Below are positions 1 through 41,700 of a stretch of 64,000 nt of DNA, piece by piece. A program made the position numbers and the translations under genes. The notes beneath the pieces are model-generated. The model ran no database searches and was not told where the DNA came from. It worked only from the letters and a program-made list of their open reading frames with translations. Within the stretch, counting starts at the first letter, position 1. Each line of letters opens with the position of its first letter. Source of the stretch: a virus (Duplodnaviria > Caudoviricetes); the IMG/VR virus record IMGVR_UViG_3300036713_000599; one strand, written 5' to 3'.

Positions 1-1
1 G

Positions 2-9273: not shown

Positions 9274-9425
9274 ATGATGGTCGACCTACGCCTGAATGGA
9301 AATTCAGGGAAAAGTTGCCCATCAATGATCGGATGTCCGACGTTATCCAGAAAACTGTTAAGGCGGCGGAGTACCAGCTTGAGAAAGAGCGGCGGAGACT
9401 TCGTAAGCTACAATACGGTTCCTAG
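9141..9425 (+). CDS. Possible small basic/helical protein; start uncertain (9141 or 9333)
   Basis: The open frame fills the 9274-9436 gap and its C-terminal half is protein-like (EWKFREKLP...KAAEYQLEKERRRLRKLQ). The only starts are 9141, overlapping the previous gene by 133 nt, or 9333. Confidence 0.45.
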   Translation: MDRDKDEFENRGSAEKGQGGEQSGGGCSGDPESVDKASDVEESVDDGRPTPEWKFREKLPINDRMSDVIQKTVKAAEYQLEKERRRLRKLQYGS

Positions 9426-9436
9426 GAAGGTGGCAA

Positions 9437-18423: not shown

Positions 18424-18434
18424 TCGTCATTGTT

Positions 18435-18863: not shown

Positions 18864-19696
18864 TGGCGGTAGCACAGTGTCAGTTCACGCAAGGTGGGAC
18901 GGTCGGAGGCGACGGTCAGTCTGTTATAGGGCTCTCTTCCGGTGCCCAGATTACCATGACCGACAAAGCAGGGGCCGGAGCGACCTCTTACTTGTGGGAG
19001 ATCATTAATTGGCCCGCTCCTTTGTCTTCGGCTCCGGTGATTACGAACTCGACGTCGCAGGTTGCAACGGTGACTCCTACCCAGGATGGGATCTACATCG
19101 TCAAGTTGACCCGGACTGATGCGGGTGACGGAACTACAGTGGACACACAGTTCTTCGGTATCGAAGACTCCGAAGGCCACCATCTTCCAGTGGCTGGCAT
19201 GTCCGGGAATATGACCAACGTGGGAGGTTCCCCTACCCTGGCCCAGGCGGCCGGGTGGATGGGCCGGGCGGACGCTTCAACAAATGTCCTGCTAGATGCG
19301 TATCTCCGGTGGTGTAAGGCAGCAGCCCGTAACGTCCAGAGCTTTCCTCTGGTTGCTGGGAAACAGGTTGCCACGAGCAACAGCTGGCTCGTGGTGGGCT
19401 CTTTGCAGTTCGACCCCTCCCAGTACCCTTCCTACGCTACAGCGGCCTTCCAGGTGGCTCTGAGTGTTACCAGTGGGCAGACGGCCGAGGTTCGGCTCTA
19501 CAACGTCACCGACGGTGGAGTGACTGCAAGCTCAACTCAGACGAGTACAAGTCAAACAACGGAGGTCAAATCAGCCACGGTTACGCTGCCTTCAGCTGAG
19601 AAGCTCTACGAGGTCCAACTTCGGCTTGCGAGCCCCAATGGGGGGTCTGACGAGGCTGTATGCTCTGAGGCTCGTCTTATTCTGGCAGGTGTTTGA
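18863..19696 (+). CDS. Fibre scaffold protein (PKD/Ig-like domain + C-terminal beta-sandwich), 277 aa
   Basis: SYLWEIINWP...ATVTPTQDGIYIVKLT is PKD/REJ-like. Paralogous end-to-end to the C-terminal third of 19696..22656 and to both ends of 32350..34551. Confidence 0.75.
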   Translation: MAVAQCQFTQGGTVGGDGQSVIGLSSGAQITMTDKAGAGATSYLWEIINWPAPLSSAPVITNSTSQVATVTPTQDGIYIVKLTRTDAGDGTTVDTQFFGIEDSEGHHLPVAGMSGNMTNVGGSPTLAQAAGWMGRADASTNVLLDAYLRWCKAAARNVQSFPLVAGKQVATSNSWLVVGSLQFDPSQYPSYATAAFQVALSVTSGQTAEVRLYNVTDGGVTASSTQTSTSQTTEVKSATVTLPSAEKLYEVQLRLASPNGGSDEAVCSEARLILAGV

Positions 19697-22656
19697 TGGC
19701 AGCACCGTACTCCCAGCTCTCGTGTGTCTTTGGAGGGACAAACGAGTACGTTACGATAGGGGACGTGCTCGGGTTTGAGAGGACCGACTCGTTTTCGGTG
19801 AGCTTTTGGTTCAAAACGACTGATACTGGGTGGAAGTCTCTGATTGGAAAGTCAGAGGGAGCCTCCAATTACCGAGGATGGGGCGTCATCCTCAGCGGAA
19901 TCTCGGCAGGGAGCATTCGATTCACACTTACGAGCATTTCGGGTTCCAACCATCTGTCTGTCCGCACGACCGGTGTCTACAACGACGGAGAGTGGCACCA
20001 CGGACTAGTCACCTACGATGGTTCTTCTTCGGCTTCTGGTGTGACGTGGTACATCGACGGAGGATCTGTCGCCATGACCACTGTGGACGACACCCTATCA
20101 GCTACGATCGTCACGACCCGCAACCTTCTCCTCGCGGCTAATGATGACGGGGCAATCGATCATTACACAGGCAGTCTTGACGAGGTTGCCGTTTATGATG
20201 TCGAGCTGACCTCTAGCGATGTTGTGGAGATATATAATGGAGGGGCGCCATCAGACCTTCTCCGGCTCGATACTTCGGGTGATCTCGTGGGTTGGTGGAG
20301 AATGGGAGACGGAGATGTCTACCCGACTCTCATGGATCATTCGATTAGCGGTAATAATGGCACTATGACCAACATGGAATCAGCCGACATCCAGGCGGAT
20401 GTGCCAACCGGCAGATTCTCGGTTGAGTTCGGAGGGACCAACGAGTACGTTACGATGGGGGATGTGCTCGGGTTTGAGAGGACCGACTCGTTTTCGGTGA
20501 GCTTTTGGTTCAAAACGACTGATACTGGGTGGAAGTCTCTGATTGGAAAGTCAGAGGGAGCCTCCAATTATCGAGGATGGGGCGTCATCCTCAGCGGAAT
20601 CTCGGCAGGGAGTGTCCGGTTTCAGCTCACAAGCGTTGCGGGTTCCAGCCATCTGTCTGTCCGCACGACCGGTGTCTACAACGACGGAGAGTGGCACCAC
20701 GGACTAGTCACCTACGATGGTTCTTCTTCGGCTTCTGGTGTGACGTGGTATATCGATGGGGAAACCGTTGCCATGACCACTGTGGACGACACCCTGTCAA
20801 CTACGATTGCCACAACCCACGATCTTCTCCTCGCGGCTAATGATGACGGGGCAATTGATCACTATACCGGCAATCTTGATGAGGTTGCCGTCTATGATGT
20901 CGAGCTGACCTCTAGCGATGTTGTGGAGATATACAACGCCGGGAACCCCGCCATTGATCTGGCGAAGGCTTCCTCTGCAGGCAGCCTTGCGGGTTACTGG
21001 AAGTGTGGGGATGGAGACACTTATCCAACCATTGCAGATCACTCAGGCAACGGTAATGACGGTACCATGACAAACATGGAAGCCACGGATATTGTGAATG
21101 ATTCGGCTTTCGCTCGGCTTCCTGTGGGTTCTCCACTGCTCCCAAGAGTTTCAGGATACTCAGCAGCCTTTGGTGGTACGGATGAGTACGTCACAATGGG
21201 GGATGTGCTCGGGTTTGAGAGAACGGACACGTTTTCGATCTCGGTCTGGGTTAAGACAACTCTTTCGGCCATTGGACATATTGTGGGCAAAACTGCCAAC
21301 TCGACGGCTGCCCCTGGGTGGGCGCTGCTCATCGACTCGACAGGGAGGCCTTACTTTGATCTTATCAACTCTCTCACGGGTAACAATTATCTTCAGATCG
21401 GCACGACCACAGCGACCGTGAAGGATGGTCGCTGGCATCATTTAGTTTTAGCCTACGATGGTTCAAGTGCTGCGAGTGGTGTTACGTTCTATATCGATGG
21501 CGTGAGTGTCGCGTCTTTGACGACCTACCAGAACACGCTTTCGGCCTCGACCGTCCATACAGATCCTTTGACTGTTGGGCGTAGGGCGAACCATCCTAGT
21601 GACACATATCCCTACGTAGGCAGTCTCGATGAAGTTGCTGTCTACGACATCAAGCTGACGGCAGCAGAGGTGTCCCGTATCCATAACGGGGGTTCGCCTT
21701 GCGACCTGGCGAAGCTCGGCACCTATGCGGACCTCGTTGGCTGGTGGCGGATGGGTGATGGGGACACGTTCCCAACTCTAGCCGACCATGGTAGCGGTGA
21801 CAACGACGGCACCATGACCAATATGGAAGCTTCGGACATTCAGCGAGATGTCCCGTTGGCTGGTGGTGCCATCCAGTTTACTCAGGGCACGGAACGGGAC
21901 ATCGGGAAGTTCTCGACTGTCACGGGCAATACAGCTGTTACGCTCCGGGACGCCAAGGGTTATGGAGCCATCGCCTGGCAATGGGAGGTCATTTCGGCCC
22001 CTGGCCCAGTAGGGACTTTTCCAGCCATCACAAATGACGGGGCCAAAGATGCCTTTGTTACGCCGTCTACGGACGGGGTTTACGTCGTCAGGGTCACACG
22101 AACGGATATTGGCGGGGAGTCTGTGGACACCCAAGCGTTTGCCGTGCTTGACGGTGAGGGGCATGCTCTGCCTTCGGCTGGCCTCGGTGGCAGTCTTATT
22201 AACACGTCTGACGAAGCTCTAGTGGCAAGTTGGATTGGACGGGCCGATGCCCAGACGGACTTCTTTTTCGACGCTTACTTGAGGTGGCTCAAGGAGGCTT
22301 TGAAGAATTCTCAGACGTTTGAAATCTTATCTGGTCTTCAGAAGACCGATTCGACTTCATTCGTAGGGGTCGGGGCAGTCCGACTTAATGAGTCAAACTT
22401 CCCGAGCTACACAGTGGCGACATTTCAAGCGGTCTTTGAGGTAGCTTCGGGTTATACAGCTGAGGTCAGGTTGTACAACCTGACGGACGACACTACAGTG
22501 TCGGGTTCGGTATTGAGTACAACCAGTACATCTTCCGTGGTACTCGAAGGTACCCTGACGCTTCCTTCCGGGCAGAAGGACTACGAGGTTCAGCTCCGGG
22601 TTACGGCCGGTGGCGGTTTTGCTACTTGCACAGGAGCGAGGATTATTCTCACGTAG
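19696..22656 (+). CDS. Tail-fibre/receptor-binding protein: 3 LamG domains + scaffold domain, 986 aa
   Basis: ATG in a TGATG overlap. Three F-x-G-x-x-E-Y-V...FSVSFWFK...WHH...YDG...YIDG...G-x-LDEVAVY...W-x-M/C-GDGD units (~19708-20412, 20413-21102, 21157-21855), then a paralog of the 277-aa protein. Confidence 0.85.
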   Translation: MAAPYSQLSCVFGGTNEYVTIGDVLGFERTDSFSVSFWFKTTDTGWKSLIGKSEGASNYRGWGVILSGISAGSIRFTLTSISGSNHLSVRTTGVYNDGEWHHGLVTYDGSSSASGVTWYIDGGSVAMTTVDDTLSATIVTTRNLLLAANDDGAIDHYTGSLDEVAVYDVELTSSDVVEIYNGGAPSDLLRLDTSGDLVGWWRMGDGDVYPTLMDHSISGNNGTMTNMESADIQADVPTGRFSVEFGGTNEYVTMGDVLGFERTDSFSVSFWFKTTDTGWKSLIGKSEGASNYRGWGVILSGISAGSVRFQLTSVAGSSHLSVRTTGVYNDGEWHHGLVTYDGSSSASGVTWYIDGETVAMTTVDDTLSTTIATTHDLLLAANDDGAIDHYTGNLDEVAVYDVELTSSDVVEIYNAGNPAIDLAKASSAGSLAGYWKCGDGDTYPTIADHSGNGNDGTMTNMEATDIVNDSAFARLPVGSPLLPRVSGYSAAFGGTDEYVTMGDVLGFERTDTFSISVWVKTTLSAIGHIVGKTANSTAAPGWALLIDSTGRPYFDLINSLTGNNYLQIGTTTATVKDGRWHHLVLAYDGSSAASGVTFYIDGVSVASLTTYQNTLSASTVHTDPLTVGRRANHPSDTYPYVGSLDEVAVYDIKLTAAEVSRIHNGGSPCDLAKLGTYADLVGWWRMGDGDTFPTLADHGSGDNDGTMTNMEASDIQRDVPLAGGAIQFTQGTERDIGKFSTVTGNTAVTLRDAKGYGAIAWQWEVISAPGPVGTFPAITNDGAKDAFVTPSTDGVYVVRVTRTDIGGESVDTQAFAVLDGEGHALPSAGLGGSLINTSDEALVASWIGRADAQTDFFFDAYLRWLKEALKNSQTFEILSGLQKTDSTSFVGVGAVRLNESNFPSYTVATFQAVFEVASGYTAEVRLYNLTDDTTVSGSVLSTTSTSSVVLEGTLTLPSGQKDYEVQLRVTAGGGFATCTGARIILT
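19732..20934 (+). repeat. Tandem near-identical duplication (period 699 bp) of LamG-coding DNA
   Basis: 19732-20235 aligns with 20431-20934. Perfect blocks counted by hand: 107 bp (19765-19871), 41 bp (19873-19913), 102 bp (19950-20051). Confidence 0.92.
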
Positions 22657-22665
22657 AGGTACATC

Positions 22666-23832
22666 ATGGCAGGCACCCCCATCGGCAAAATAGACTGCGC
22701 TATCACAAACGCATCAGCAAATCTGGCGAACCAGGAAGTCTTTAAAAATACCTTCGATTTTTTTGAGCAAATGGTTACGGCTGGGTACGCGACTCGTATC
22801 GCTCTCCAGTACGGGGCTAGCGGTACGGGGACTGATTACCACGACGGGACCAATCCTTTCGGGGAAAACGCCTTTGCAGTCTATCGAATGGATGGGTCTA
22901 CGAGTGGGAATTCTTCGAGCGCTCGGGATGGGTCAACCCTTCCGGACTTTGACTATTATGTGCTCATCCAGTGGGCTGACACAGCCGCATTCGGCACTAC
23001 TCCAGGCAACCCAGGGACTCTGGATGCGGGGACAGGAGATGGGGTCGGAATCGTGGTTGCGGTGCGTGAGGATGGAGGAAGCCCTTGGAACGGTGGGACG
23101 GCTAATGCCGGTGCAGATGCTAAGGGTTCAACAGTTTGGACGGCGGGTGCCTCTGTTTTGCATGTGTTTCCTATTTCCAACAGCTTTACGGGCGGGTCTC
23201 ACCTAACCAACAAGGAAAATGCTCGTCTGCTGGTGGACTCGGGGACAGGTGGAGTCAGAATGTCGTGGGTGGGTACAGCTGACTCGTTCGCGTTCATCTT
23301 CGACGCTGGAGATACCGGAACATACCAAGCTCACTACGTTGGGATTTACGAGCCTAGAAGTGGGCTGAGCCCCTCTTTGCCTCTCGTGTGTGCTAGCCCC
23401 TCTGCTGCAGCAACGTTGCCATGGCCAGACGGTACAGCGACAACGTGGGGCACAACCACAGGGGATGGGACCAACGAGGGTGGTGTGCTCGGAACCCTTC
23501 TCACCGATCTGATGACCACTTTGAGCGTGGGTCAAGACGTGGCGGGAGTCTTCACAGCAGTCTCCCAGCCAAATAACCAGTTGGCAACTCCTGAATTGGA
23601 CGCTTTTCCGATTCGTCTGGTTCAGCGAGGTACTGGACGAGTTGGCTATTTAGGTGATTTGGAGCCAGGTCTGATCCAAGTCGTTTACGATGTTGCCACA
23701 AATCAGACGAACGCTGCCCAGAGTCGAGCTTACTTTGGGTCGGCTACGCAAGCATCTCTCCACCTCGCAGTGGCTTGGGGAGGTAGCAACACACCCGGCA
23801 CTAACTCGACTCGTGCAGGAGTAACGTTCTGA
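22666..23832 (+). CDS. Fibre-associated protein, probable distant member of the ~330-aa paralog family, 388 aa
   Basis: Similar size, position and C-terminal pattern (LDAFPIRLV...VGYLGDL) to the family at 34557-45475. TGATG overlap with the next gene. Confidence 0.65.
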   Translation: MAGTPIGKIDCAITNASANLANQEVFKNTFDFFEQMVTAGYATRIALQYGASGTGTDYHDGTNPFGENAFAVYRMDGSTSGNSSSARDGSTLPDFDYYVLIQWADTAAFGTTPGNPGTLDAGTGDGVGIVVAVREDGGSPWNGGTANAGADAKGSTVWTAGASVLHVFPISNSFTGGSHLTNKENARLLVDSGTGGVRMSWVGTADSFAFIFDAGDTGTYQAHYVGIYEPRSGLSPSLPLVCASPSAAATLPWPDGTATTWGTTTGDGTNEGGVLGTLLTDLMTTLSVGQDVAGVFTAVSQPNNQLATPELDAFPIRLVQRGTGRVGYLGDLEPGLIQVVYDVATNQTNAAQSRAYFGSATQASLHLAVAWGGSNTPGTNSTRAGVTF

Positions 23833-26243
23833 TGACCGACGAGTATCGTTCCCTAGGTCTAGCTGCTACTTCTTTCAGGAATGATGGAGGTGTGCCAAGT
23901 CGTCTTCGTACCTTCGGGGAGCCGATTAAGACTCTTGCCGTGGGCCATGAGTTGGATTCCGATACGTTTGCTCTGTGGAGGATGAATGAGACTGAGTACC
24001 AGGGGGCACTTGTTCACAATTCAACCCAGAGTGCTACGGCAGCTTATAGTCGAAGATCCACCACCTTTGACGGTGTGAATGAATACGTCACGGTGGGTAA
24101 CGTCTCAGAGCTTTCGTTTGAAAGGACTGATTCGTTTTCAATTAGTTTTTGGTTCAAGACCTCGTCAACCTCTTTACAGTACCTCATCACCAAGATGTCC
24201 GCCTCTACGGCGAACACTGGGTACGCAGTTTCCTCTATCGGCTCAGGCACGGTCGGGGCCATTCGATTTCAATTGGCGTCGAATGTCGGGAGTGGTAACT
24301 ACCTCCAAAAAACGACTACTTCAGCTTATAATGATGGTGAGTGGCATCACGCTGTGATTTCATACGGGGGATCCAGTGCTGCTTCCGGTATTTTGATCTA
24401 CATCGACGGTTCGTTGGCTTCCACCACAACTAATTTAGACGCTCTTTCTGCAACTACGGTCACTACAGCAGCATTCGAGATTGGAGATGCTTCGGCTGCT
24501 AGCTCCTCCTACACTGGGGATATAGACGAAGTGATCGTATTTGACAAGGAGGTCTCTAGTTCAGAAGTAGCCTCTCTGTATAATGGCGGTGTGCCGATCG
24601 ACCCCCGAGCCCTCGTGTCTAACGTCGTGGGTTATTGGCGTATGGGTGACGGTGACGTCTATCCGACCATCACGGACCATTCAGGCAGCGGCAATGACGG
24701 CACCATGACCAACATGGAGGTCACCGACATCACCAGGGAAGTTCCTAGCGGACGGACTCTGGCTCCAAGCACTCCCTCAGATTGGACGTTCGTACCGCTC
24801 ATCTCTTACGGCCCTGGGGGTAAAAAGCAGCCCTGTCGATGGTTCCGAGGCCCTTTTTTCGACAACAATCTCCAGCGGGCGGGGCAGTCGGACTTCGTCT
24901 CACTACTCACAGGAGACCATACCATTGAGGTCTGGGTCTACATTGAGGACTTGTCTGTTGGTAGTCACACGATCATGGAGTACTCAGGAACAGGGGAGGC
25001 AGAGGCAGATAACTATCTCCAGCGAGTCCTCGTCACCTCGACCGGTAGGATTGCTCTTTTTTGGGAGTATGGTGCCGGGAGTGACGCTGGATTTACGACC
25101 ACATCAATTTACATCACAGAGAGAACCTGGCACCATATAGCTGTGAGTAATGTGGTTGTCACGGGGGACCGGACAGCTAAGGTCTATGTGGATGGCGACT
25201 TCAAGGAGTCTACTACCGACACGAATGCGTCCGGCGGAACGTCCGCTGATTTTTCGATAGGATGTGATGTCGAGATAACGACCAACAAGATGTTTGGTGC
25301 TATGGCTGATATGCGGTTCAGCAGCAAGGAAAGGACGGCGGCAGAAATTGCAGCTTCCGCCGCTGATTATCAACACATCCTCGATTCAGACACTTTTGCT
25401 CTTTGGCGATTTAACGATCGCCCTGCTATTGAGGACGAAGTCGGGAACTACCCCCTGGTTCCTATGAGCTTCTCCGAAGAATCTGGTATCGTATCGGCTC
25501 TGATTAACGATAATGGTCGTGCTAAGTCCATTAATAGTACGAAAATGTCTTGGAGTTCGAACCGGACACTGATAAGGGACTTTCTGGACAGTGGGGACCA
25601 GACCTTTGAGTTATGGTTTCGGGTTGAGGCTGGGGCAGGGACGGGTTCCGTCCCCTCTTCCCGCATGCGTCTTTTCCTATTCAATTCCTCCGGTGAGGCT
25701 GAAGGGGAAAACGTCTTGATACAAGTTCAATTCGAAACAACGGGACACATGGAGGTTTTTTGGGAGTATGGGACTGGAAACGACGTGTCTCTGGTCACCA
25801 CGGATCCTGTGATAGGTCCCAATGATTGGTGGACTTCGCATCACATCGCGATCACTAGGTCGATTGGTGCTAGCACAGACGTGCAGATTTATTGTGACGG
25901 TGTATTGGTCCAAGAGTGGACTGGTCAGACAAACCCTTCTGGTGGTACTGACGTTGACGTGGAATTTCGAATTGGAGACTCTTCAACGGAAACGTTTATT
26001 CTGGACGACGTCCGCCTGTCCTCCAAAGTTCGAACCGCCGGGGAGATTGTCCAATCGCATGCGAGAGGCACGCCCATAGACAAAATTACTCGGTACCGTA
26101 AGCGGGCGAGGGATCAGGGGTCTGAGCCTGCCATTGTTTACGTTGAGTGGGAGACGACAGACCCTGACGGCTCTTTTCCTGGAATCATCCCTAATGGTGG
26201 TCCTCTCGTCGAGGAAGTGATTCTGGACAAGTTCCAGGTGTGA
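23832..26243 (+). CDS. Tail-fibre/receptor-binding protein with 3 LamG-like domains and a C-terminal 'R-A-(W/R)' module, 803 aa
   Basis: Two H-x-LDSDTFALWR-type LamG-like units plus one EYVT-type LamG cassette (~24045-24746). The C-terminal ~50 aa resemble the small proteins at 35528 and 45477. Confidence 0.8.
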   Translation: MTDEYRSLGLAATSFRNDGGVPSRLRTFGEPIKTLAVGHELDSDTFALWRMNETEYQGALVHNSTQSATAAYSRRSTTFDGVNEYVTVGNVSELSFERTDSFSISFWFKTSSTSLQYLITKMSASTANTGYAVSSIGSGTVGAIRFQLASNVGSGNYLQKTTTSAYNDGEWHHAVISYGGSSAASGILIYIDGSLASTTTNLDALSATTVTTAAFEIGDASAASSSYTGDIDEVIVFDKEVSSSEVASLYNGGVPIDPRALVSNVVGYWRMGDGDVYPTITDHSGSGNDGTMTNMEVTDITREVPSGRTLAPSTPSDWTFVPLISYGPGGKKQPCRWFRGPFFDNNLQRAGQSDFVSLLTGDHTIEVWVYIEDLSVGSHTIMEYSGTGEAEADNYLQRVLVTSTGRIALFWEYGAGSDAGFTTTSIYITERTWHHIAVSNVVVTGDRTAKVYVDGDFKESTTDTNASGGTSADFSIGCDVEITTNKMFGAMADMRFSSKERTAAEIAASAADYQHILDSDTFALWRFNDRPAIEDEVGNYPLVPMSFSEESGIVSALINDNGRAKSINSTKMSWSSNRTLIRDFLDSGDQTFELWFRVEAGAGTGSVPSSRMRLFLFNSSGEAEGENVLIQVQFETTGHMEVFWEYGTGNDVSLVTTDPVIGPNDWWTSHHIAITRSIGASTDVQIYCDGVLVQEWTGQTNPSGGTDVDVEFRIGDSSTETFILDDVRLSSKVRTAGEIVQSHARGTPIDKITRYRKRARDQGSEPAIVYVEWETTDPDGSFPGIIPNGGPLVEEVILDKFQV

Positions 26244-26251
26244 GGTAACGG

Positions 26252-29200
26252 ATGAGCGTTTACGGTCGGACAGCATATGGCGATAGATCCTTTGAAGGGT
26301 TAGGTCCGTCTCTCGCGTCATCTTTTCCGACCACAGGTGCCACCAGTACAGGCACCGATGTCCTGACTTACTTCACTGTCACATCAGAGGCAGGGATCGA
26401 CGTCAGTTTGTTTAATGTCTACGACGGTACCACCCCAGTTATTCTGGGAGGGGTGTTCGTGGGTGACTTCGACGGTGTTGTTACACTTGGGGCTCAGGAC
26501 TGTGATGTTGTTGTCTCGAAGTATCCTGTGTGGGCGTCTGGTGAGCACACAATCAACATAGATGTTACTGACCTCGCTGGGACGCAGGATGATCTAAGCT
26601 ACACGTTCAACACGGCTTCAACCGGTAATATTGTCGACGTCAATGAGACGATAACCGTTTCGGACACAGTGTCCACGGATGTCAACCTTGTGGCGGCTCC
26701 TTCAGAAACAGTCTCTGTTTCTGAAGGTATTTCGACGCAGTATGGTGCCAATATTGGCCTTGGTGAGACGGTTTCTGCTTCTGAGAGTCTAACTTTAGGC
26801 TCCGTTGCTCTTTTGGACGAAACGGTCGCTGTTTCTGACGGGGTCGTCACTGAATATGGTGCGGTGGCTGAGCTATCTGAAACAGTCTCTGCTTCTGAGT
26901 CGAAGACCGTTTCTAGTGCGACCTCCCAGGCCGTTGGCGAGACAGTAAGCGTCTTTGAGAATGTGGTTCTCAGGGATGCCGTTGAGTTGTCGGAATCCGT
27001 GAGTGTGGGGGAAACGCTGGCTATCAGCGAGGGCGAGACCCGTTCGCTGAATGAAACTGTTCTTGTGTCCGAGACCGTCCAGGCGGAAAAGGGTCAAGTA
27101 GTATCTGTTTCAGACTCTGTGTCTGTGTCGGAAGTTGTAGGTACGCTCCAAGAAAATCATGTCGGCTTAAGCGAGACGGTTTCTGTTACCGAAAATATCG
27201 GCATACTGAATCCAGTCAGAATTGGCGAAACAGTCACGGTCGCTGAATCCGCAGCTGCCTACTTCACTTACGGCGTGAATCCGAGTGAGACTGTTGCGGT
27301 TACCGACGATGTCAACATCGGTGAGAACAATCAGGTAATCATCGACAGCCTACCTGGAACGGCGGACAGACAATTCTTCCGACTAAAGTTCCCCGTCCCT
27401 CTGAGCTGGTCGCCTCGAAGTGAGCAGGCCAGTATTACAGCCCTAACCCTAACCTCCCCAGACGGGGGTGTGCCCGCGGCCATTATTGGAGCGACTAAGG
27501 AGTTCTCGACCTACCACACAGGCCATTTAGGTCGCCTCGTACTCCAGAGCATAGACGAAAGCAAGTCGAACAGGTTCCGTGTACCAGGACAATATTCAAT
27601 CGACGCCAGTCTCATTGGTGAGTACCTGGAGATCTCAAGCGGGTCCAATGAAGGCATTTACAAGATTGTAGGGCTCGACGGAACGGACCTTGTTATCGAC
27701 ACGGAAATGCCTTTGACGGACACAGTGAATGGCTACGTCCAGGGGAAGGTCGAGTACGTCAGCCAGGTGGTGGGCCCAACAGAGACAGTACATACTTTCC
27801 GATTGGTCAATGGTCGTGTAACCGTATCGGACCCCCTCATCGAACTAGTTTACACGGATAGAAGGGATGGCCCCCTTCCAGGTATCGCTGCTCTCGGGTC
27901 AAGTTACAATACTATTGAAATCACTGTCAACAATGCAACCCCATGGCTCAACCCAGAGGAAGCCTTCGTTTATGTCGTGGCACGTATCTCGCCCAAGACC
28001 GACTGGCGAATCGTTAGCGGTGTGACGAGTTTCCTCCTTGAGACGTCCAAGTTGACCGCTGGTAAAATATACGAGCTGTCAGCTAAGAGCTTACTGACTT
28101 CAGAAGGGCAGTATGTCGACTTTGTGGGATACGCTCTCCTTGAAGCGAGCGATGTCCAAATACCAAGATTGATCGCCGCTAGTACGATTGGCGACGAGGG
28201 TGCTGTCCTCGTTACGTATGACCAACCAATGCAGCCGGATGAAGACAACCTCTTCAGTACGTCAGATTACGCCCTTACTGGACCGATCACAGTCTTTGTT
28301 CAAAGTGTGAAGGCGTACGGTAGCAATTCGGTTGTCCTGGTCACTACGGGGATGGAGGCGGGAGATTATACGCTGACTGTTTCGACCGGCACTCCGAAAG
28401 ACGTTGCTGGTAACCCTCTCGACCCGACATTCAATACGGCCATCTTCACGGTAGGTGCTTCACCGCTTGCGAGCCGTAGCATTTTTGTGGATAAAGGGCC
28501 GATCGCAAAACCACCTCTTACAATACAATCGGGAACGGGAGTCACTTTCGACAGCTTCGCTCTGCTCACCCTCGCGGGAGCGAGTTTGACGAACGATCAT
28601 GTAGGCAAGTTTGTCACTATCGATAGTGGCGGCAGTTCTACTAATGAGGGCACCTATCGGATTACCTCGGTCGTTACGTCTTCTCAGGTGAGGCTCCAGG
28701 CCAGCTTTACCTTGCCCGACACTGTAGTCTTTACATGGGAAGTGTTTGACCCACAAGACGGCATCGTCGCGGATGACCCTGGTGACGTCACTGTTCGAAT
28801 AAACGGCTCCCCTGTGACGCCGGAGGCTGTTGTAGGGCTTCTGGGTCAGGTGGTTCTTTCGACGGCCCCTAGCCTCACTGATGACGTCACAGTCGATTAT
28901 TCCTGGTGCTGCAACCCGACCGTCGACATTAGACGGCTCAATTCTGCTGAGTTCCGATTCAACGCGTGGAATCAGAACTATGGTCAGACTTGTCAGGCAA
29001 CTCAGCATCAATACAGATACAACAATGTTCTCGTCCGTCCGAGTGATTATGATTCGGACGATCCAAGGGCACTTCTCGATCAACCAAAGGAGCGGGAGCT
29101 TCATTACAGAGGCTACGAAAGGGCCTACACAGCAGTCCTGAACGATCCCACTCTTCTTGTGTTCAATACACCCATCCACCGGATCGCGTACCCTCCAGCT

Positions 29201-32200: not shown

Positions 32201-32338
32201 CGTTATATTCTCGTGATTGATTTGAATAATGGAAACGTTATGGGTTCGATCACTTTTGACTACCTTGATGGTAACTACCACACCTACCATATCGTTCGAG
32301 ATCCTGGAGCTGGTGTTGTCCAGGTCTCGATCAGCTGA
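26252..32338 (+). CDS. Giant tail-fibre/virion protein with ETVSVSE repeats, Ig-like and lectin-like repeats, 2028 aa
   Basis: GAGG SD. 12 E-T-V-x-V-S-E repeats; bacterial Ig-like segment (PRLIAAS...VLVTYDQPM); four Y-x-G-x-x-(L/V)-P...W units, each followed by an H-x-Y-(R/H)-(L/I) motif. Confidence 0.8.
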   Translation: MSVYGRTAYGDRSFEGLGPSLASSFPTTGATSTGTDVLTYFTVTSEAGIDVSLFNVYDGTTPVILGGVFVGDFDGVVTLGAQDCDVVVSKYPVWASGEHTINIDVTDLAGTQDDLSYTFNTASTGNIVDVNETITVSDTVSTDVNLVAAPSETVSVSEGISTQYGANIGLGETVSASESLTLGSVALLDETVAVSDGVVTEYGAVAELSETVSASESKTVSSATSQAVGETVSVFENVVLRDAVELSESVSVGETLAISEGETRSLNETVLVSETVQAEKGQVVSVSDSVSVSEVVGTLQENHVGLSETVSVTENIGILNPVRIGETVTVAESAAAYFTYGVNPSETVAVTDDVNIGENNQVIIDSLPGTADRQFFRLKFPVPLSWSPRSEQASITALTLTSPDGGVPAAIIGATKEFSTYHTGHLGRLVLQSIDESKSNRFRVPGQYSIDASLIGEYLEISSGSNEGIYKIVGLDGTDLVIDTEMPLTDTVNGYVQGKVEYVSQVVGPTETVHTFRLVNGRVTVSDPLIELVYTDRRDGPLPGIAALGSSYNTIEITVNNATPWLNPEEAFVYVVARISPKTDWRIVSGVTSFLLETSKLTAGKIYELSAKSLLTSEGQYVDFVGYALLEASDVQIPRLIAASTIGDEGAVLVTYDQPMQPDEDNLFSTSDYALTGPITVFVQSVKAYGSNSVVLVTTGMEAGDYTLTVSTGTPKDVAGNPLDPTFNTAIFTVGASPLASRSIFVDKGPIAKPPLTIQSGTGVTFDSFALLTLAGASLTNDHVGKFVTIDSGGSSTNEGTYRITSVVTSSQVRLQASFTLPDTVVFTWEVFDPQDGIVADDPGDVTVRINGSPVTPEAVVGLLGQVVLSTAPSLTDDVTVDYSWCCNPTVDIRRLNSAEFRFNAWNQNYGQTCQATQHQYRYNNVLVRPSDYDSDDPRALLDQPKERELHYRGYERAYTAVLNDPTLLVFNTPIHRIAYPPARRLLAEEFVTYEGLSLPESLVVNPWERVGSGTAVVSSGHLVVTDDTSGSYPTGQPIFWRREIDTTYPHVFAMSWRFTLTMVAEATGVFSGVAAGYSDDSVAIVVGFLEDGGVKKFGILKRGYGDDPSDITAWVGGLDSSGNSTAAPSEVDWSTIHSYRLLRGIDGVIRIYVDGDIEEILRITPDELPFLEELDAPFDAIQGVFFGSLSRPARNISDWDFIRYLTQPTNPIQTSPSSFTSYEANVVPEADSKPWTPIGFHGTSTILSTDFLLLDSTSASDVSDVGLIGGDFHGYLRFEPLLGISSEMVVDAQVQVLTHTHGFDPNGVMFAVDDGTRLMQVCFISDQELPKISYGGRSLPGDFTPFSWASAGSQTAEMAGRILRITDASATDGLVYYYDDVAPAGSDDRTLESTIDYMLECRCRVVSYTVDGSGYAGTFFQAYDGIRVIGLLLEEVSGTRYASLQSDGVVLAQFAFEWNDSAFHTYRLRKSTSGNLVSLFIDGSFVGSLAYSSFTSPGVSTTGQISFGSSTPASIGSESVVDWAYCNTWRVRGDVRHYIGLWRGSSTGTLQDYHVPLKAAGRGASVVGNVLTDANASFVVDGVAAGDQVVVDEGPNAGIYEVSAATPTTLVMTTTFSQQPSEVDYRVAEETDWTTQHKYRLARDSNGTVSLLLDTGTQPIVQVEYGAVDLPASGSGLVRTLSGGLAAITFGAFDVEGLSQSSWDFVRYGLTRSPTELRIVPQHEILNQWNVMSSPERLFTQLPHNLTDFKSSSTGIVPKEDPDFLEDPGLTAFTVLNEQTPLVPLTQAFETRSPYPVQEFISALNRPEDVLNNDGGFTLNDGTRRFKLIVPDDVLYSCLDVIEQTIGEQSLIKPFSDGCGCASDMKLEYTQEVCLTYDGDVLPESDTAAPTPWDLVSDSPAQVSTTVFSSVLTYGTLSGGTRTVYRNNTPLPDAPGLRTEAQFKMRVLNDGTLGTDDTQIRAGLSAPNLTVALAFVTTPLAERYILVIDLNNGNVMGSITFDYLDGNYHTYHIVRDPGAGVVQVSIS
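26642..27320 (+). repeat. Protein-level tandem repeat: 12 x (E/D)-(T/S)-(V/I)-x-(V/A)-x-(E/D), period 18 or 20 aa
   Basis: ETITVSD, ETVSVSE, ETVSASE, ETVAVSD, ETVSASE, ETVSVFE, ESVSVGE, ETVLVSE, DSVSVSE, ETVSVTE, ETVTVAE, ETVAVTD. Confidence 0.85.
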
Positions 32339-32349
32339 GGACTCATCAC

Positions 32350-34551
32350 ATGGCTGCTGAGATTACGTTCGACCAACCGACTGGGGCGGGTGCTGGTGTT
32401 GCCGGAAAGGCTCGGAATGACCTTTGGTTGAGCCAAGCGGTAGACATGGTCTCTAGCGGAACCGGTTCGACGTACCTGTGGGAGTTGTTGGACGCCCCTC
32501 CAGGTAGTTCTGCAGTGATCGCAAACCCTACCGCGAGCACAGCAAATATTACACCTGATGAAGTAGGTACCTACCGTATTCAGCTTACGGTGGATGGCGG
32601 GGGATTGGACAATGTTATTGTCAAGGTCATCCGTGCTCGCTTCAGTGACTCGGGTGAGCTTCTTTTTCGGGGCTGGGCTTTGCCGGCGATCGACGAGGAA
32701 ATCGACGAGGCCGACTACGGAACCAATACGCGGCACTGGGCTGAGGTGTGGGAGTCCATTATACCTGATGTCCGAGGCAACCTGACTCGTTCGCTCGTGT
32801 TTCGACCTGGTGGGCCAGCTGGCGGTAACGTCTACGCGAGCTGGTCTGACCTTATGGTGGCTTTCGGTGAGACTTCCGGTCTAGTGACTGTCGAAATAGA
32901 TGGTGACTATGACCAGCCGGTCGTCCCTCCTGGGTCGTGGGACTTTGAGTCCAGAGCTATTTTGGTTGGAAGGGGTTTTGCAGGCTTTCGTGTACCTTTA
33001 GAAATAGGCGATGGCTCCACTAGTGACACGGAGCTGAGTGGGGTTAGCGGTTTCCGAAATCTTGAAGTTTATGCCGTAAATGATGCGACGAACACTGCTT
33101 CGAATTACATAGCGAGCGATAAAATTTGGTTTGAAGACTGTGACGTTTATTCCCAAAACATTGGTGCTCCTCGGAGAATGTTCGAAATGGAGCAGAGCGA
33201 GATCATTCTTCGGGGTAGAACACGTTTTCTAGAAGGGGGCACTGAGTCTATATACGTTGTGCCCTTTAATCCAGGTAATAGTGTTTATGTCGAGAATTTC
33301 AGTTCTATCGACGAGTCTGTGTTGGACGTCCCTGCTAATGCCACGGTTGACATTTATTTAGCCAACCAAACTACGACCTACGACACCTCTCAAACAGTAA
33401 GCGGAACCCTGAACGCATTTTCTTCGACTGCGTACACCTTTTTTGTGTACCGGCCAGGAGGGATTTCTTCTGGTAATGTCTACTCTGATTGGGCCACATT
33501 GATGGGAAAAGTGGCGTCTACAGAGGGACCGAAGACAATTGAGCTGGACCCTTCGGTGGACCCGAATACGCGATGTGATATTCCTAGTGGCACGTGGGAC
33601 TTAGGGTACAACACCACCCTCCGTGGGGATGGTTCCGTTGTCGTGCTTATGGAGGATGGCGCCAATTTCAGAAATGCTTCTGTACTAGAAGGTGGTTTGG
33701 AAATTTGGAGTGCCAGCACGAGTGTTGTGTTCACGTGGTCTGGTACGAAAACTCTTAGCCTCCGCGACTCCTGCAAGCTGATCGGGGCCCAGTATCCTGG
33801 CCAATCAGCTCCAACTTTCCCTCTCTTGGAAGGTGGGAGCCACGTCATTGATATGAGAGACGACTCGGCTTTGAGGGCCTCTTTGGGCGATCAGCCGGTT
33901 TTGGACAATGATGACTTGCCTAACGACCTCATCCTCATGTATGATCGTGCTAGTATCGAGGATGGGTCAGGAGGCAGCAATCAGTCGTATGCTCTAAATG
34001 CTGGTGAACAAGATGACATAGGGATCAACTTTTATTCTCCTGCGTCGTATTTCAATCACGACAGAACTAACCTAAACATACAGTCTTGGGCGGTTAGGCA
34101 AAATGTCATATCTCTCGTGAAGGGCTCCTTCAGCAATGCATCCTCTACGCCTTCAGCTGTGGGGGGTGGTCACCTGGATCTCGCCAGGATGGGGACGGCC
34201 CATTCCAATTTGACAGCCAGGCTTCTGGTCTTGTTGGAGACCACGAGCGGTACTCCGGGGTTCGAGGCGTATTTTGACTTGTACGATGTATTCGGTATTT
34301 TGAATTCAGGCGTACCTGCTGTAGTAGCGGGCTCTCAGGTGAACACGGGGACGGGGGTGCCACCTGTGGGTGGTCCTACAACTAACCCTCTTGTTCCGAG
34401 CCTGTATGTAGTTGATCTTAGTTCGTTGCTTGCGTCGGTTCCGGCAGCAACAGCTTCTTATGTGGTCTTAGAAGCTAGACTCTGGATTGGCACGACTGGT
34501 GGGGGCAACGTAGCAACCTGCAAATCGGCCGAGTTGGCCTTCGAGTGGTGA
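32350..34551 (+). CDS. Tailspike-like protein: PKD scaffold + duplicated beta-helix-like insert + C-terminal beta-sandwich, 733 aa
   Basis: N-terminus (STYLWELLDAPP...ANITPDEVGTYRIQLT) and C-terminus (...VATCKSAELAF) match the 277-aa scaffold. Internal duplication FRPGG...GNVY...W at ~32791 and ~33439. Confidence 0.72.
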   Translation: MAAEITFDQPTGAGAGVAGKARNDLWLSQAVDMVSSGTGSTYLWELLDAPPGSSAVIANPTASTANITPDEVGTYRIQLTVDGGGLDNVIVKVIRARFSDSGELLFRGWALPAIDEEIDEADYGTNTRHWAEVWESIIPDVRGNLTRSLVFRPGGPAGGNVYASWSDLMVAFGETSGLVTVEIDGDYDQPVVPPGSWDFESRAILVGRGFAGFRVPLEIGDGSTSDTELSGVSGFRNLEVYAVNDATNTASNYIASDKIWFEDCDVYSQNIGAPRRMFEMEQSEIILRGRTRFLEGGTESIYVVPFNPGNSVYVENFSSIDESVLDVPANATVDIYLANQTTTYDTSQTVSGTLNAFSSTAYTFFVYRPGGISSGNVYSDWATLMGKVASTEGPKTIELDPSVDPNTRCDIPSGTWDLGYNTTLRGDGSVVVLMEDGANFRNASVLEGGLEIWSASTSVVFTWSGTKTLSLRDSCKLIGAQYPGQSAPTFPLLEGGSHVIDMRDDSALRASLGDQPVLDNDDLPNDLILMYDRASIEDGSGGSNQSYALNAGEQDDIGINFYSPASYFNHDRTNLNIQSWAVRQNVISLVKGSFSNASSTPSAVGGGHLDLARMGTAHSNLTARLLVLLETTSGTPGFEAYFDLYDVFGILNSGVPAVVAGSQVNTGTGVPPVGGPTTNPLVPSLYVVDLSSLLASVPAATASYVVLEARLWIGTTGGGNVATCKSAELAFEW

Positions 34552-34556
34552 AATAG

Positions 34557-35528
34557 ATGGCTCTCCCGACACTAGAAAAAACTTGGCAGTTCTCCGTCAA
34601 TCAATCGGTCGGTGGGATTGCTGTAGATAATGACAACGCGGATCTCCTTTGGAAGATACAAAATGCTTTGAAGAACTTCGTGTCAGGTCAATGGTCGGTC
34701 GCGTCCAGCTCTGATGGGTCAAACTTTGGGTTGTCAGATTTCTGGCAGACGGATTACACAGACATCACTTGGGCAGCCGGTTCAGTGGCCCATTCCTGGA
34801 TTGTGTTGACAAACAGTGCCACGAACGCCCAGCTATGCATCGACTGCAACGTGGCTGAAGCCGGTAGCGAAACCGGACAAGTGTACTTTTCCCCAGGAGG
34901 AGGGTATGCCACCACAGGGCTCGCCACAACAGATCGGCCCACTCCTCCAGCAGACGAGGTCCTTATCACAGCTGGACCAGGGTACGGCGGGTCAGATGGA
35001 GCGTGGAACGGGAAAGTTCACGTGATGATGAGCAGCGACGGAGAGGCCACCAGAATTGCAGTCTGCGAATCGAATGGGTGTGTGGCTCTCTGGCTCTTAG
35101 ACGCCGCTCGAAATCCAATAACGGGTTGGACCAACGCAAATATTGGGTGTGCCGCTGGTAGGAGTAGCTCTGGGGTATCAGACTATTCAACATACGCAAA
35201 CCTTAACGCTGCGACTAAGCTGAAGAGTTACATCACGACCTCTTTTGACCTGTATCTCACCAGTGAAGGATATGGGTCAGGTATGGTTGGAAACAGCCCT
35301 TCTGGGACCGTAGCAGACAGCCAGACGGGATCATGGCCCATGTTGCCCATAGGGCTAGCGAGTGAGACTGCGGCTCATGTGGGCCGAAAGGGTGGTCTCT
35401 ACGACATCTGGTGGGGTAGTGTCACGCGAAATACAGGTGACTCCTACCCCAATGACACGTCGTACCAATTCGTGCAGTTTGGGGACATCATTCTTCCCTG
35501 GAGCGGCGTGCTTCCACAGGTGTCATAA
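34557..35528 (+). CDS. ~330-aa fibre-associated paralog family member, 323 aa
   Basis: LEKTW...LWKIQNAL...WSVASSSDG...D-x-W...SWIVL...SSDG...MLPIGL...RKGGLYDIWW motif series shared with 41456-45475. Confidence 0.8.
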   Translation: MALPTLEKTWQFSVNQSVGGIAVDNDNADLLWKIQNALKNFVSGQWSVASSSDGSNFGLSDFWQTDYTDITWAAGSVAHSWIVLTNSATNAQLCIDCNVAEAGSETGQVYFSPGGGYATTGLATTDRPTPPADEVLITAGPGYGGSDGAWNGKVHVMMSSDGEATRIAVCESNGCVALWLLDAARNPITGWTNANIGCAAGRSSSGVSDYSTYANLNAATKLKSYITTSFDLYLTSEGYGSGMVGNSPSGTVADSQTGSWPMLPIGLASETAAHVGRKGGLYDIWWGSVTRNTGDSYPNDTSYQFVQFGDIILPWSGVLPQVS

Positions 35529-35773
35529 TGGCCACTGTAGATGGAGACTTGGCAGGTAGAACGGACTATGGTGATGGGCTCCTGAGCGGAGCTGTGGGCA
35601 GCTCCCATGCCCTTCCACAAGGCTCTGGAGTCTTCGAGGTTAGGTACAAAATGCGTGCCTGGGAGACGAGTGTGGGTTGGGTTACGTGGATTAGTTATGG
35701 CACACCAGACCCGAACCCGCCGGCGGGCACAGGTCCTGTTGAAGATGTGACTATAGTTGCTTCCTGGGAGTGA
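35528..35773 (+). CDS. Small 'R-A-W' module protein, 81 aa
   Basis: TAATG overlap. YKMRAWETSVGWVTWISYGTPDPNPPAG is similar to 45477..45713 and to the C-terminus of 23832..26243. Confidence 0.75.
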   Translation: MATVDGDLAGRTDYGDGLLSGAVGSSHALPQGSGVFEVRYKMRAWETSVGWVTWISYGTPDPNPPAGTGPVEDVTIVASWE

Positions 35774-35776
35774 TTA

Positions 35777-38700
35777 ATGCCTGTTGCTACCAAATCCTTG
35801 TCTTTTGGCACGAATAAGTACGTCACGATGGGCGATGTGCTGGACGACGACGGGACGGGTGTTTTAGTTTTTTCATTTTGGTTGAAATGTTCTTCCGGTA
35901 CCTATCCTCTCATCTTGAAACAAGAGGGGGTGAGCCCCTATTTGGGTTACGCTGTTTGGGTTGATTCAGACAAGATTCGGTGGGATCTTGTTCACGACAC
36001 AACTACGAATGCCTTGAAGGTAGAGGCTTCTATGGCTTCGGTTGCAACGGGTCAGTGGACCCATGTCGTGGTTATGTCAGATGGCAGTCGTACGCCAGGG
36101 GGAATGCGGGTATATGTCAATGGCGTCCAACAGGTATTGACCACGATTACAAATACCTTGACCTTGTCTATTTCGAATTCTTATCCATTCCAATTTGGAA
36201 AGCAAGGTGCGAGAACAGACTGGTGGTTCACTGGCAATCTGACTCAGGTGGTCAAGTACACCCGAATGCTCACGTCGGCAGAGGTTGCGGATCTGTACAA
36301 CCAGGGTAACCCCCCGAATGTCACCAATCTTAGCTCAAATGACGCCATTGAGGCATATTGGCCTCTTGGGGAAGGTGACGTCTTCCCGGTAAATTTCGAA
36401 AGAGCGTTGGATCCTGTAGTCTTGTACAATGCTGGAACAGAGAGTTCTTTTTACCAACTTTCGAACAAAATTGAGTCTATTGAGTGGTGTCGAGGTGAGG
36501 GTCTAGAAGACACGGCACCGTACTATGAAGGGCCGGGTGGTGTTTTTTGTCCATTTTCGACTAAATTTGACGTAGACGCTTTTTACAGAGCAGGGCCTAT
36601 CAATAATTTGGCTCACACGAGTCCTTGGACGATGTCTGTGTGGCTTAAATGGAACTACACAGATAGCCGTAATGGCGTGATAATGGGTCGTTTCGTAGGT
36701 TATCCGGGAGGCGCTGAGGGTTATGGTTACGGGTTATACACAGAAGGAAGTTCTTCTGGGGCTGTAGGGATCTCTACACGGTTTAGCGGAGTCTCTCAAG
36801 GACCTGTTGTTCAGACGACGGCAGAGACGTTCAATGACAACAATTGGCACCATGTTGTGGCGACTTATGATGGAAGCCAAGTTGCGGGAGGTATGCACAT
36901 TTGGGTAGACGGGGAGGATGAACCCCTCACAATATTGAGCAGTGCGACCCTCCAAGGGCTGCCCACAGCCTCTTTTTGCTTGGCAGGGTACGCTGACACA
37001 GCAGGTACCCAATCTTTTGAGGGGTTCATGTCTCAACCCACTATGTGGGGTCGAGTACTTGGTGTGAATGAAATCGAGGCCTTGTACAATGGTGGTGTGC
37101 CAGCAGAAATAGCCGGTTTTGCGGACCCTAGCTTACTAGGTTATTGGAGGATGGGCGATGGGGACACCTTCCCTGTTATTTCCGACAATATTGGAAGTAA
37201 TGACGCCATTATTCAACAAGCGAGCCCCCCATTCTCCCAAACTTCTTGCTTGTTTGACGGTTCGAATGAGTACGTGACGATGGGGAATGCGTCTGAGTTG
37301 TCCTTTGAGAGGACGGACGCATTCTCGGTTTCTTGTTGGTTCAAGTTGGACCCTGGAGACTCAGGGTATCTTATGTCCAAAATGGACGCAGGACCGACGG
37401 GATATGGCCTTTTTGCTGATTCCAGTAATACCAGAATATACATTCAAGATACCTCATCTTTTCAGATAGAAGTGACTACTACAAGTGCCTACGATGATGG
37501 AATTTGGCATCACGTCGTGGTAACCTATGACGGGACCTCGCTTGCGAGCGGGATCTCTATCTATATTGACGGCAGTTCTGTCGGTACTTCGACCGTAGAT
37601 GATACTCTTGGCACCAACAGTATTCTCAACACTGCATCCTTCAATGTTAGTAGTCGTACTGACGGTGCTGCAGGTCTGATGGACGGCAAGATTGATGAAG
37701 CGGCCGTCTACGACAAAGAACTGTCCTCTGGGGAGGTGGCTGCTATCTATAATGGAGGGATTCCGGTAGACTTGTCGGGGCTTAGCAGCTCTCCTAGCCT
37801 CGTCGGTTGGTGGAGAATGGGAGATGGGGACACTTTTCCCACACTCACAGACAATTCTTCCAATAGCAACGATGGTACTGCGGTCAACATGGAATCAGAG
37901 GATTTCCATGGAGACGCTCCAGGAAAATTCTCTCTATTATTTGACGGAGTGGACGAATACGTGACGATGGGGAATGTGACCGAATTATCCTTTGAAAGGA
38001 CGGATGCGTTTTCGATTAGTTTTTGGTTCAAGTCAACGTCAACTGTTGAGCAATACATTGTAGGTAAAACAGCGGCAGCACCTGCGTACACAGGATACCT
38101 GGTATACTTAGTTGGATCTGTGGGGACCATACGTGTCCAGTTGGTTGCTGATGTTGGTTCCAGTAACTACCTGCAGAAGACTACAGTTGCCTCGTACAAT
38201 GACGGGGCTTGGCATCACGTTGTTATTGCGTACAATGGATCGAGTAAGGCTGTAGGTGTGTCGATCTATGTGGATGGTGTCCAAGTCAGCACAACAGACA
38301 ACCTAGATGCCCTGTCATCAAGCATTGCCACAACGGCCGCTTTCGAAGTCGGTGATGCTTCAGCAGCTACTTCGCCGTTTGTCGGTCAGGTTAAGGATGT
38401 TGCTGTCTACGACAAAGAGCTTTTTGCCGTGGAGGTGGTCGAGATTCACCAAGGAGGTGCACTTTTGAGTCTTCCCACCTCGTCGGGTTTGTTGGGCTAC
38501 TGGAGGCTCGGAGATGGGGACACTTTCCCGACTGCCACAGATAGCAGCGTGAGTGGCAATGACGGAACCATGACAAACATGGAGTCCGCGGACATTGTGA
38601 ATGATGCCCCCTTGCCTATGTTCTTTCCGTATTACAGTGTGTCTGTTGTTAATGACACGACACCTCGATTTTCGCAATTGTCTTGTCTGTTCAATGGGAC

Positions 38701-41700: not shown

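Follow-up and report, generated by a model that had tools for sequence, protein, structure and literature searches.

The window analysed here, a stretch of 64,000 nt from the record of a huge tailed phage (Duplodnaviria; Caudoviricetes; IMG/VR virus record IMGVR_UViG_3300036713_000599), carries three genes, g987, g803, and g2225, each of which codes for a string of LamG domains. The cores of these domains and the joints between them have different histories, and the cores seem to have been exchanged by recombination within genes, between genes, and between phages. This conclusion is drawn from a mosaic pattern of the domains: two young tracts are present inside this genome, and core and connector trees are incongruent among the orthologues of g987. 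The window corresponds to bases 168097-232096 of a linear record of 240,951 bp, which is ~50% complete according to CheckV and was found in three public sediment-metagenome runs from two samples.

LamG units, young tracts, and orthologues

A six-frame search of the whole record gave exactly 14 matches to PF13385 (Laminin_G_3), all of them in g987, g803, and g2225, which have three, three, and eight, respectively (see Table 1 for coordinates). The matches (E 5e-27 to 3e-13) score 47.5-92 bits, above the gathering score of the family (27.6 bits). An earlier reading of this DNA (the original prediction) had counted about 14 LamG domains in these genes, and the count is exact. Both a start motif (F-x-G-x-(N/D)-EYVT) and an end motif (W-x-x-G-(D/E)-GD...NDGT-x-x-NME...D-x-P) were found by motif scan and alignment in eight units (g987 U1-3, g803 U1, and g2225 U3-6). 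The motifs are weakened in g2225 U1 (KYVT for EYVT), U7, and U8 (the latter two with degenerate ends), and the start motif is missing from g803 U2, g803 U3, and g2225 U2. The W-x-(M/C/L)-G-(D/E)-GD part of the end motif occurs in the eight EYVT units and also in g2225 U2.

Among the eight full units, mean pairwise amino acid identity is 0.58 for the N-border and 0.66 for the C-border compared to 0.28-0.34 for the cores, computed without the pair g987 U1/U2, the cores of which are exceptional in being 90% identical. The cores contain conserved islands at W-HH...YDGS...Y-x-DG (0.55) and around L-DEVAVYD (0.49). Conserved ends around divergent cores, as originally described, are thus a feature of the units with this one exception. 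A higher-order pair of units, A (SQ-x-SC-x-F ... D(V/A)P(x)G) and B ((K/R)FS ... DIVND), had been described once in g987 and twice in g2225, and was recovered by the motif scan at g987 U1-U2, g2225 U3-U4, and g2225 U5-U6, with the predicted two copies of YWKCGDGD in g987 U2 and g2225 U6.

An identical-codon excess test over 55 unit pairs and four regions was significant for two pairs only, g987 U1/U2 and g2225 U5/U6. The tract shared by g987 U1 and U2 begins at the FGGTNEYVT motif and shows 91% nucleotide identity over 520 nt, the longest exact run being 107 nt. Synonymous divergence (dS, computed by NG86) is 0.22 in the N-border, 0.26 in the core, and 0.66 in the DEVAVYD region, and is saturated in the C-border that follows. 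The breakpoint is visible after the EIYN codons, at ~20235, where identity collapses. Because the C-border, normally the best conserved region, is saturated beside a young core, a uniform age is ruled out for this pair. We interpret it as a mosaic in which the region from EYVT to EIYN of one unit would have been overwritten by that of the other, the A-type and B-type ends having stayed in place. The duplication is not an assembly artefact, since the Logan unitigs specific to either copy have full depth (shared unitigs are at ~1.6-1.9x). Differences within the tract are clustered (19914-19947 and 20052-20125; partners 20613-20646 and 20751-20824) and are both synonymous and non-synonymous, which suggests patchy conversion, or older sequence kept at sites under selection, instead of point mutations acquired since the duplication.

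The second tract is short and lies in the C-borders of g2225 U5 and U6. It has 22 identical codons in 29, compared to 10.0 expected, and a dS of 0.175 in 25 codons, the rest of the pair being saturated; a 65-nt unitig common to both units is at ~2x depth. A GENECONV-like scan for the longest matching fragments flagged many additional border fragments, but borders change slowly, which confounds such a scan, and these fragments were set aside. Only tracts that also passed the synonymous-codon and dS tests are claimed.

Older exchanges were sought among orthologues. In g987, the LamG units occupy aa 1-240, 241-487, and 488-730 and are followed by a PKD-like domain and a tail domain. Protein searches returned three full-length orthologues: P0006 (982 aa), P0007 (977 aa), and P0005 (1458 aa, five units). 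They share their gene neighbourhood (the baseplate wedge gene, a 269-aa gene, a 168-aa gene, a homologue of o18863, the gene at 18863-19696, and then the LamG gene); on the P0005 contig, the o18863 homologue is fused to a LamG unit in a 773-aa gene. They also share the N-terminus, the connectors, and the PKD and tail domains with g987. Collinear identity to g987 is 60-63% for PKD plus tail, 51-76% for the three connectors, and 56-81% for the N-borders, but only 32-39% for the cores, which is the background between any two LamG cores; core 3 of P0007 is the exception.

The core of g987 U3, referred to as the "Y" core, is 77% identical to P0006_u1 and 68-70% identical to P0007_u3, but only 34% identical to the collinear P0006_u3. 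Further core similarities cross gene borders (55% between P0007_u1 and g2225 U3, 61% between g803 U1 and g2225 U4). The connectors have signatures which depend on position: IYN-x-GAPSDLL...VPTG at position 1, YNAGNPA...GYW-x-C...DIVND plus x-PLLP-x-x-S at position 2, and RIYNGHRPPDL-x-KL-x-TY...VPL-x-G at position 3. The Y core is combined with the position-1 connector in P0006 and with position-3 connectors in g987 and P0007.

Maximum-likelihood trees reflect this. The core tree groups {g987_U3, P0006_u1, P0007_u3} (100/100), {g987_U1, U2} (100/99), {P0007_u1, g2225_U3} (96/93), and {g803_U1, g2225_U4} (99/97), and approximately unbiased (AU) tests on the cores reject positional clades (p = 1.5e-67, 3e-4, and 1e-3). 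The connector tree has a position-3 clade (83/91) and a position-2 clade (71/77), and a core-type clade is rejected (p = 0.034). For the Y core, the switch from positional to type-specific sequence lies within the N-border (F-GGT(D/N)EYVTMGDVLGFERTD), and the switch back lies within DEVAVYD-x-ELT; at a resolution of ~10-30 residues, these points match the ends of the young g987 U1/U2 tract. The borders had originally been proposed as recombination hubs for the swapping of cores. Core exchange and a 5' crossover in the N-border agree with this proposal, but the 3' crossover is at DEVAVYD...EIYN and not at W-x-MGDGD...NDGTMTNME: that end and the linker are position-specific and stay with their position.

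The orthologue test is confined to g987 because no full-length orthologue of g2225 was found. The best match in a protein search has 37% identity over 75% coverage, and a megablast search of g2225 against phage records gave no match. Scans for related loci found none for its C-terminal domain in viral contigs and no identity above 31% (<=31%) for U1-U2 in metagenome contigs.

Fold of a unit and conservation of its ends

For g2225 U5+U6, 56 natural two-unit sequences were used to build an AlphaFold (AF2) model with a mean predicted local distance difference test (pLDDT) score of 91.5 and a predicted template modelling (pTM) score of 0.79. Foldseek matches it to laminin LG4-5 and neurexin LNS pairs. 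In VIA-align comparisons, complete single-domain chains align to the model at 1..238 and at 238..473, with Z 19-23 and an rmsd of 2.7-3.2 A for 190-212 residues. They include pentraxins, the LamG-like module of PAPP-A, and a Bacteroides carbohydrate-binding protein, each of which spans one unit; individual Z values are 23.0 for the LamG-like module of dimethylformamidase, 21.8 for PAPP-A, 20.2 for PTX3, and 19.3 for SAP. The phrog_347 profiles stop exactly at the unit end. Since single-domain chains align to each half of the model, a unit is predicted to be one whole LamG/pentraxin beta-sandwich, the start and end motifs being its first and last strands, and the unit limits drawn in the original prediction are structurally right.

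The phage units resemble the LamG/pentraxin superfamily (PF13385; pentraxins, PAPP-A, laminin LG4-5, neurexin LNS) in hidden Markov model membership, in fold, and in the tandem LG pairs. They differ in forming a viral subfamily, represented in at least 78 viral contigs, with terminal motifs of its own (EYVT; WW-x-x-GDGD; NDGTMTNME). Many cellular Laminin_G_3 proteins have a W-containing strand before the domain, whereas in the phage units this strand comes after the core.

Conserved ends alone are no evidence of recombination, as they are a structural trait of the whole family. When viral contigs were scanned with the unit alignment, at least 78 loci with full-length units were found, in arrays of 1-7 copies. 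The 169 units from other viral contigs are 25-50% identical overall to those of this phage, and their majority consensus keeps the same motifs (S-x-x-FDG-x-DDY...FS-x-S-x-W-x-K, WHH...T-x-DG, IDEV-x-I...IYN-x-G-x-P-x-DL, and WWR-x-GD...N-x-GT-x-x-NM...D-x-P); the connectors of one contig, L052, are nearly word for word those of this phage. At identical residues, the ratio of observed to expected use of the same codon is 1.23 in the N-border, 1.12 in the C-border, 1.08 and 1.01 in the internal islands, and 0.86-0.99 in the cores. By the Nei-Gojobori method, all regions, borders included, of all pairs examined but two have a dS that exceeds 1.4 or cannot be computed (saturated). Because the motifs are kept in the 169 outside units and synonymous sites are saturated, border conservation is taken to be mainly structural, attributable to protein-level selection on terminal strands and joints and not to recent copying. 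The idea that exchange itself had produced the conserved borders is not supported.

Pairs within and between genomes were also matched by core identity. C-border identity is 0.68 within and 0.47 between genomes; the DEVAVYD control is raised as well (0.52 vs. 0.41) and the cores are almost at their identity floor, so this comparison gives at best a weak hint of concerted evolution.

Mechanism and alternative explanations

We consider it likely that the three proteins are strings of LamG sandwiches with an exchangeable core and a resident connector, and that the cores are exchanged by general homologous recombination. The three genes would encode accessory baseplate or fibre proteins. The exchangeable cassette would comprise ~135-165 residues, beginning with (N/D)-EYVT-MG...FS-x-S-x-W-x-K and ending with the L-DEVAVYD strand; most of the sandwich would belong to it, presumably with the ligand face. 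The resident, position-specific connector would consist of the helix after DEVAVYD, a linker, the last strands (LVGWW-x-x-GDGD...NDGTMTNME...D-x-P), and a short inter-unit linker. The terminal motifs may be kept across unrelated phages because any core must mate with them; as a by-product, the longest stretches of nucleotide identity between units that are saturated elsewhere are found in these motifs. Crossovers by general homologous recombination or by gene conversion could then occur in the N-border and the DEVAVYD segment, so that a core is replaced by one from a neighbouring unit, from another fibre gene, or from another phage. Short conversions may also homogenise connectors. The recombinase is plausibly the phage's own RecA-like protein, acting during replication or co-infection. 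For the enzyme, the frequency of exchange, its selective value (changed fibre binding), and ligand binding, we rely on inference.

Apart from the two young tracts, the longest stretches of exact nucleotide identity shared by units measure 17-26 nt, and all lie in border motifs (EYVTMG, MGDVLGFER, GYWKCGDG, and GTMTNME). Such lengths are near the minimum usually quoted for homologous recombination. A RecA-family recombinase is encoded in the record outside the window (G000:C1:78238-78993; PF00154, 163 bits, 477-aa open frame). In the ~50% complete record, neither a reverse transcriptase (RVT_1) nor a resolvase/invertase nor a phage integrase/tyrosine recombinase was matched, in agreement with the original statement that reverse transcriptase and invertase are lacking. 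All units are direct and in frame, and of six weak inverted repeats of 20-30 nt none flanks a unit. General homologous recombination is the best supported mechanism because these enzymes and flanking repeats were not found, RecA is present, and homology is available only at the conserved motifs. The term "mobile cassette" used originally is an overstatement for what looks like ordinary recombinational mosaicism over evolutionary time.

The best of the alternatives, though an unlikely one, is birth and death of whole units by unequal crossing-over, with connectors re-homogenised or re-selected at each position and no crossover within a domain. It would account for the three or five units of the g987 orthologues and for the clade formed by g987 U1-U3 (96) in the whole-unit tree. 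It also fits the joint placement of P0007_u1 and g2225_U3 in the core tree as well as in the connector tree (90/87), and the U5/U6 tract, where a connector was converted on its own. The g987 U1/U2 tract, however, stops inside the unit after EIYN, with a saturated C-border behind it, and for a Y core with differing connectors, a second, exact replacement of ~75 connector residues would be needed each time.

We think it quite improbable that plain duplication and divergence at very uneven rates, with diversifying cores, frozen borders, and no exchange, explains the data. Conserved borders are indeed a trait of the whole family, other phages included, nearly all pairs have saturated synonymous sites, and the ~35% identity of collinear cores could be a saturation floor. 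But uneven rates cannot explain how a single core type (67-77% identical) came to occupy differing positions in orthologous genes, cannot yield a young core (dS 0.26) beside a saturated border that is normally best conserved, and cannot yield a 65-nt exact match in an otherwise saturated pair; moreover, the core data reject positional clades. Programmed diversification of the array by a diversity-generating retroelement or an invertase/shufflon is highly improbable: it could claim the clustered differences inside the U1/U2 tract (~19914-19947 and 20052-20125) and an enzyme lying beyond the half-complete record, but none of the enzymes was matched, the differences are of all kinds, not adenine-specific, and often synonymous, the units are direct, in frame, and not flanked by inverted repeats, and contigs are identical across three runs.

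Several points weigh against core exchange onto resident connectors. The groups subjected to AU tests were defined after the sequences had been read, and the rejection on the connector side is modest. Border trees from this genome alone lack resolution, and amino acid AU tests on the short borders are not significant (p = 0.095). P0006 is available at protein level only, from Logan assemblies (three contigs), and may be an assembly chimera. Since P0007_u1 and g2225_U3 group for core and connector alike, moves of whole units seem to occur as well. With synonymous sites saturated in borders and cores of all but two pairs, most exchanges are probably old and their nucleotide breakpoints no longer visible. 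That the last strands pack on the core of their own unit is deduced from alignment ranges on a model, and both the baseplate/fibre location of the three proteins and glycan or ligand binding by the units are suggested by gene position and fold. Finally, Logan contigs from the three runs and two samples are identical on 19600-39599, without a structural variant; they break at two repeats, and contigs hide rare variants. The original idea of ongoing diversification at the population level thus finds no variants in its favour, and exchange is seen only on an evolutionary time scale and as two fairly recent intragenic conversions. One contig of depth 2.5 (run X2) matches short border pieces of three units in a row (21755/24697/24722/37253) and probably belongs to a LamG gene of some related phage present in that sample.

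A more far-reaching form of the proposal is possible, though we put it forward tentatively: in a "socket-and-plug" arrangement, the connector would provide the last two strands in near-universal form, any viral LamG core could fold into them, and a multi-lectin fibre set would be reassorted by a RecA-type recombinase in co-infection. If this is true, the boundary between connector and core is a ready rule for the construction of chimeric binding domains.

Gene neighbourhood, relatives, and known systems

All large open reading frames of the window are on the + strand, and the three LamG genes are placed 3-20 kb downstream of the baseplate wedge gene (Table 1).

Table 1. Coordinates of the LamG genes, their units, the young tracts, and the baseplate wedge gene in the window
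Feature	Coordinates	Strand	Remarks
Baseplate wedge gene	13615..17058	+	phrog_6 baseplate wedge subunit, E 3.6e-21; module anchor
g987	19693..22656	+	987 aa (986 from ATG); three PF13385 matches, E 7.5e-65
Young tract, copy 1 (g987 U1)	19718..20237	+	N-border, core, and DEVAVYD...EIYN; partner 20417..20936
Young tract, copy 2 (g987 U2)	20417..20936	+	partner 19718..20237
g987 U3	21154..21882	+	carries the Y core type
g803	23832..26243	+	803 aa; three PF13385 matches, E 2.6e-48
g803 U1	24039..24767	+	EYVT-type
g803 U2	24768..25466	+	divergent
g803 U3	25467..26240	+	divergent
g2225	35777..42454	+	2225 aa; eight PF13385 matches, E 5.8e-154; C-terminal domain of ~340 aa
g2225 U1	35777..36526	+	
g2225 U2	36527..37237	+	
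g2225 U3	37238..37924	+	
g2225 U4	37925..38674	+	
g2225 U5	38675..39391	+	
Short conversion tract (g2225 U5 C-border)	39284..39360	+	96% over 77 nt, 65 nt exact
g2225 U6	39392..40120	+	
Partner tract (g2225 U6 C-border)	40001..40077	+	counterpart of 39284..39360
g2225 U7	40121..40795	+	
g2225 U8	40796..41476	+	

Parts of the LamG proteins also occur on their own. The gene o18863 codes for a free-standing paralogue (44% identity) of the PKD-like and tail part of g987 (21835-22656), and the PKD-like piece is also found at the start (32350-32600) of the gene at 32350-34551. The C-terminal ~340 aa of g2225 (41420-42454) belong to a family of ~330-aa paralogues (24-31% similar) which are encoded as separate genes before and after g2225 (34557-35528, 42418-43452, 43449-44474, and 44483-45475); identity to o42418 and o43449 is ~30%, and paralogues of this type have no Pfam or PHROG match. 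The gene at 26252-32338 codes for a conserved protein of 2028 aa with loose (E/D)TVSVSE-like peptide repeats in its N-terminal part (aa 130-370; 26640-27360), where Tandem Repeats Finder detected no DNA-level repeat at the start of the gene. Similar VSVSEAL stretches are interspersed between LamG units on contig L052 (gene 5742-11447).

Synteny was compared over 50 wedge-homologous loci in viral contigs. The backbone of the fibre module (the wedge gene, o17068, o17917, o26252, o45713, and o46993) is conserved and has two variable slots (18424-26251 and 32339-45712); every LamG gene sits in a slot. In the closest relative by wedge sequence, L006 (81% amino acid identity), o26252 directly follows o17917, so that g987 and g803 are absent; across the 372 kb of its record, PF13385 gives no more than three weak matches, all outside the slot. 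Slot 2 is empty in many relatives (L010, L013, L018, L025, and L043), where o45713 directly follows o26252 and g2225 is absent. The number of units is thus not invariant, with three or five in the g987 orthologues and none in the L006 slot, in relatives which are distant. In a tree of 175 units, those of this phage are interleaved with units from other contigs: g2225 alone contains at least five subfamilies, interleaved with units from L052, L053, L056, and L059, and g803 U1 groups with g2225 U4.

In relatives that carry g987 orthologues, the 168-aa gene is separated from the o18863 homologue by a GIY-YIG/NUMOD3 homing-endonuclease-like gene (L144:8478-9164 and L145:3261-4082). The corresponding site in this genome (18424-18862) is a 440-nt gap without a match to that gene, nor was one found elsewhere in the record. 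An endonuclease of this type next to a variable slot could promote gene conversion there when phages co-infect a cell.

It is well known that phage receptor-binding proteins exchange modules, and descriptions usually concern whole domains or the loops of a single tip domain. In the T-even proteins gp37 and gp38, hypervariable segments are flanked by conserved motifs (His boxes, glycine-rich motifs), which were suggested to act as hot spots of recombination (Tetart et al. 1998, J Mol Biol 282:543; Trojet et al. 2011; via PMC12032242). The LamG genes share several features with this system: conserved motifs bracket variable segments that presumably give specificity, the genes are mosaics, as seen here in the incongruent core and connector trees of the LamG orthologues, the mosaics are attributed to general homologous recombination with no dedicated enzyme, and crossovers are placed in conserved motifs. 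The resemblance is in mechanism only, as no gp37/gp38 family is among the Pfam or PHROG matches of the three LamG proteins. The gp38 tip is a polyglycine sandwich/beta-helix and not a set of LamG beta-sandwiches. Its exchange involves loops of one tip domain, whereas in this phage most of a domain is affected in a tandem array of up to eight, the exchange partners being other positions in a gene, the three genes of the genome, and other phages, and a position-specific connector that includes the last strands of that sandwich remains in place.

Tandem domains of carbohydrate-binding type beside phage tail genes are also known as BACON domains in tail-associated proteins of crAss-like phages, which evolve by duplication or single-domain transfer (de Jonge et al. 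2019, PMC6949934). There, another domain family is involved and the whole domain is the unit, whereas in the LamG arrays histories differ within the domain and nucleotide tracts end inside a unit. Among the publications searched, none dealt with LamG domains arrayed in tandem in phage fibres or with exchange of a sub-domain core next to a resident connector. The principle is already known from T-even gp38, and its LamG core/connector form appears to be new.

The evidence points to an exchange of the greater part of a beta-sandwich, with crossovers inside the domain and with the final strands and the linker acting as a position-specific socket. Core exchange may change host specificity in this uncultured phage. 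If the exchange reading is true, the sharply conserved ends of viral LamG units are explained, and a testable rule is obtained for swapping LamG cores without breaking the fold. It would also provide a handle on how uncultured huge phages vary what their many side fibres bind.

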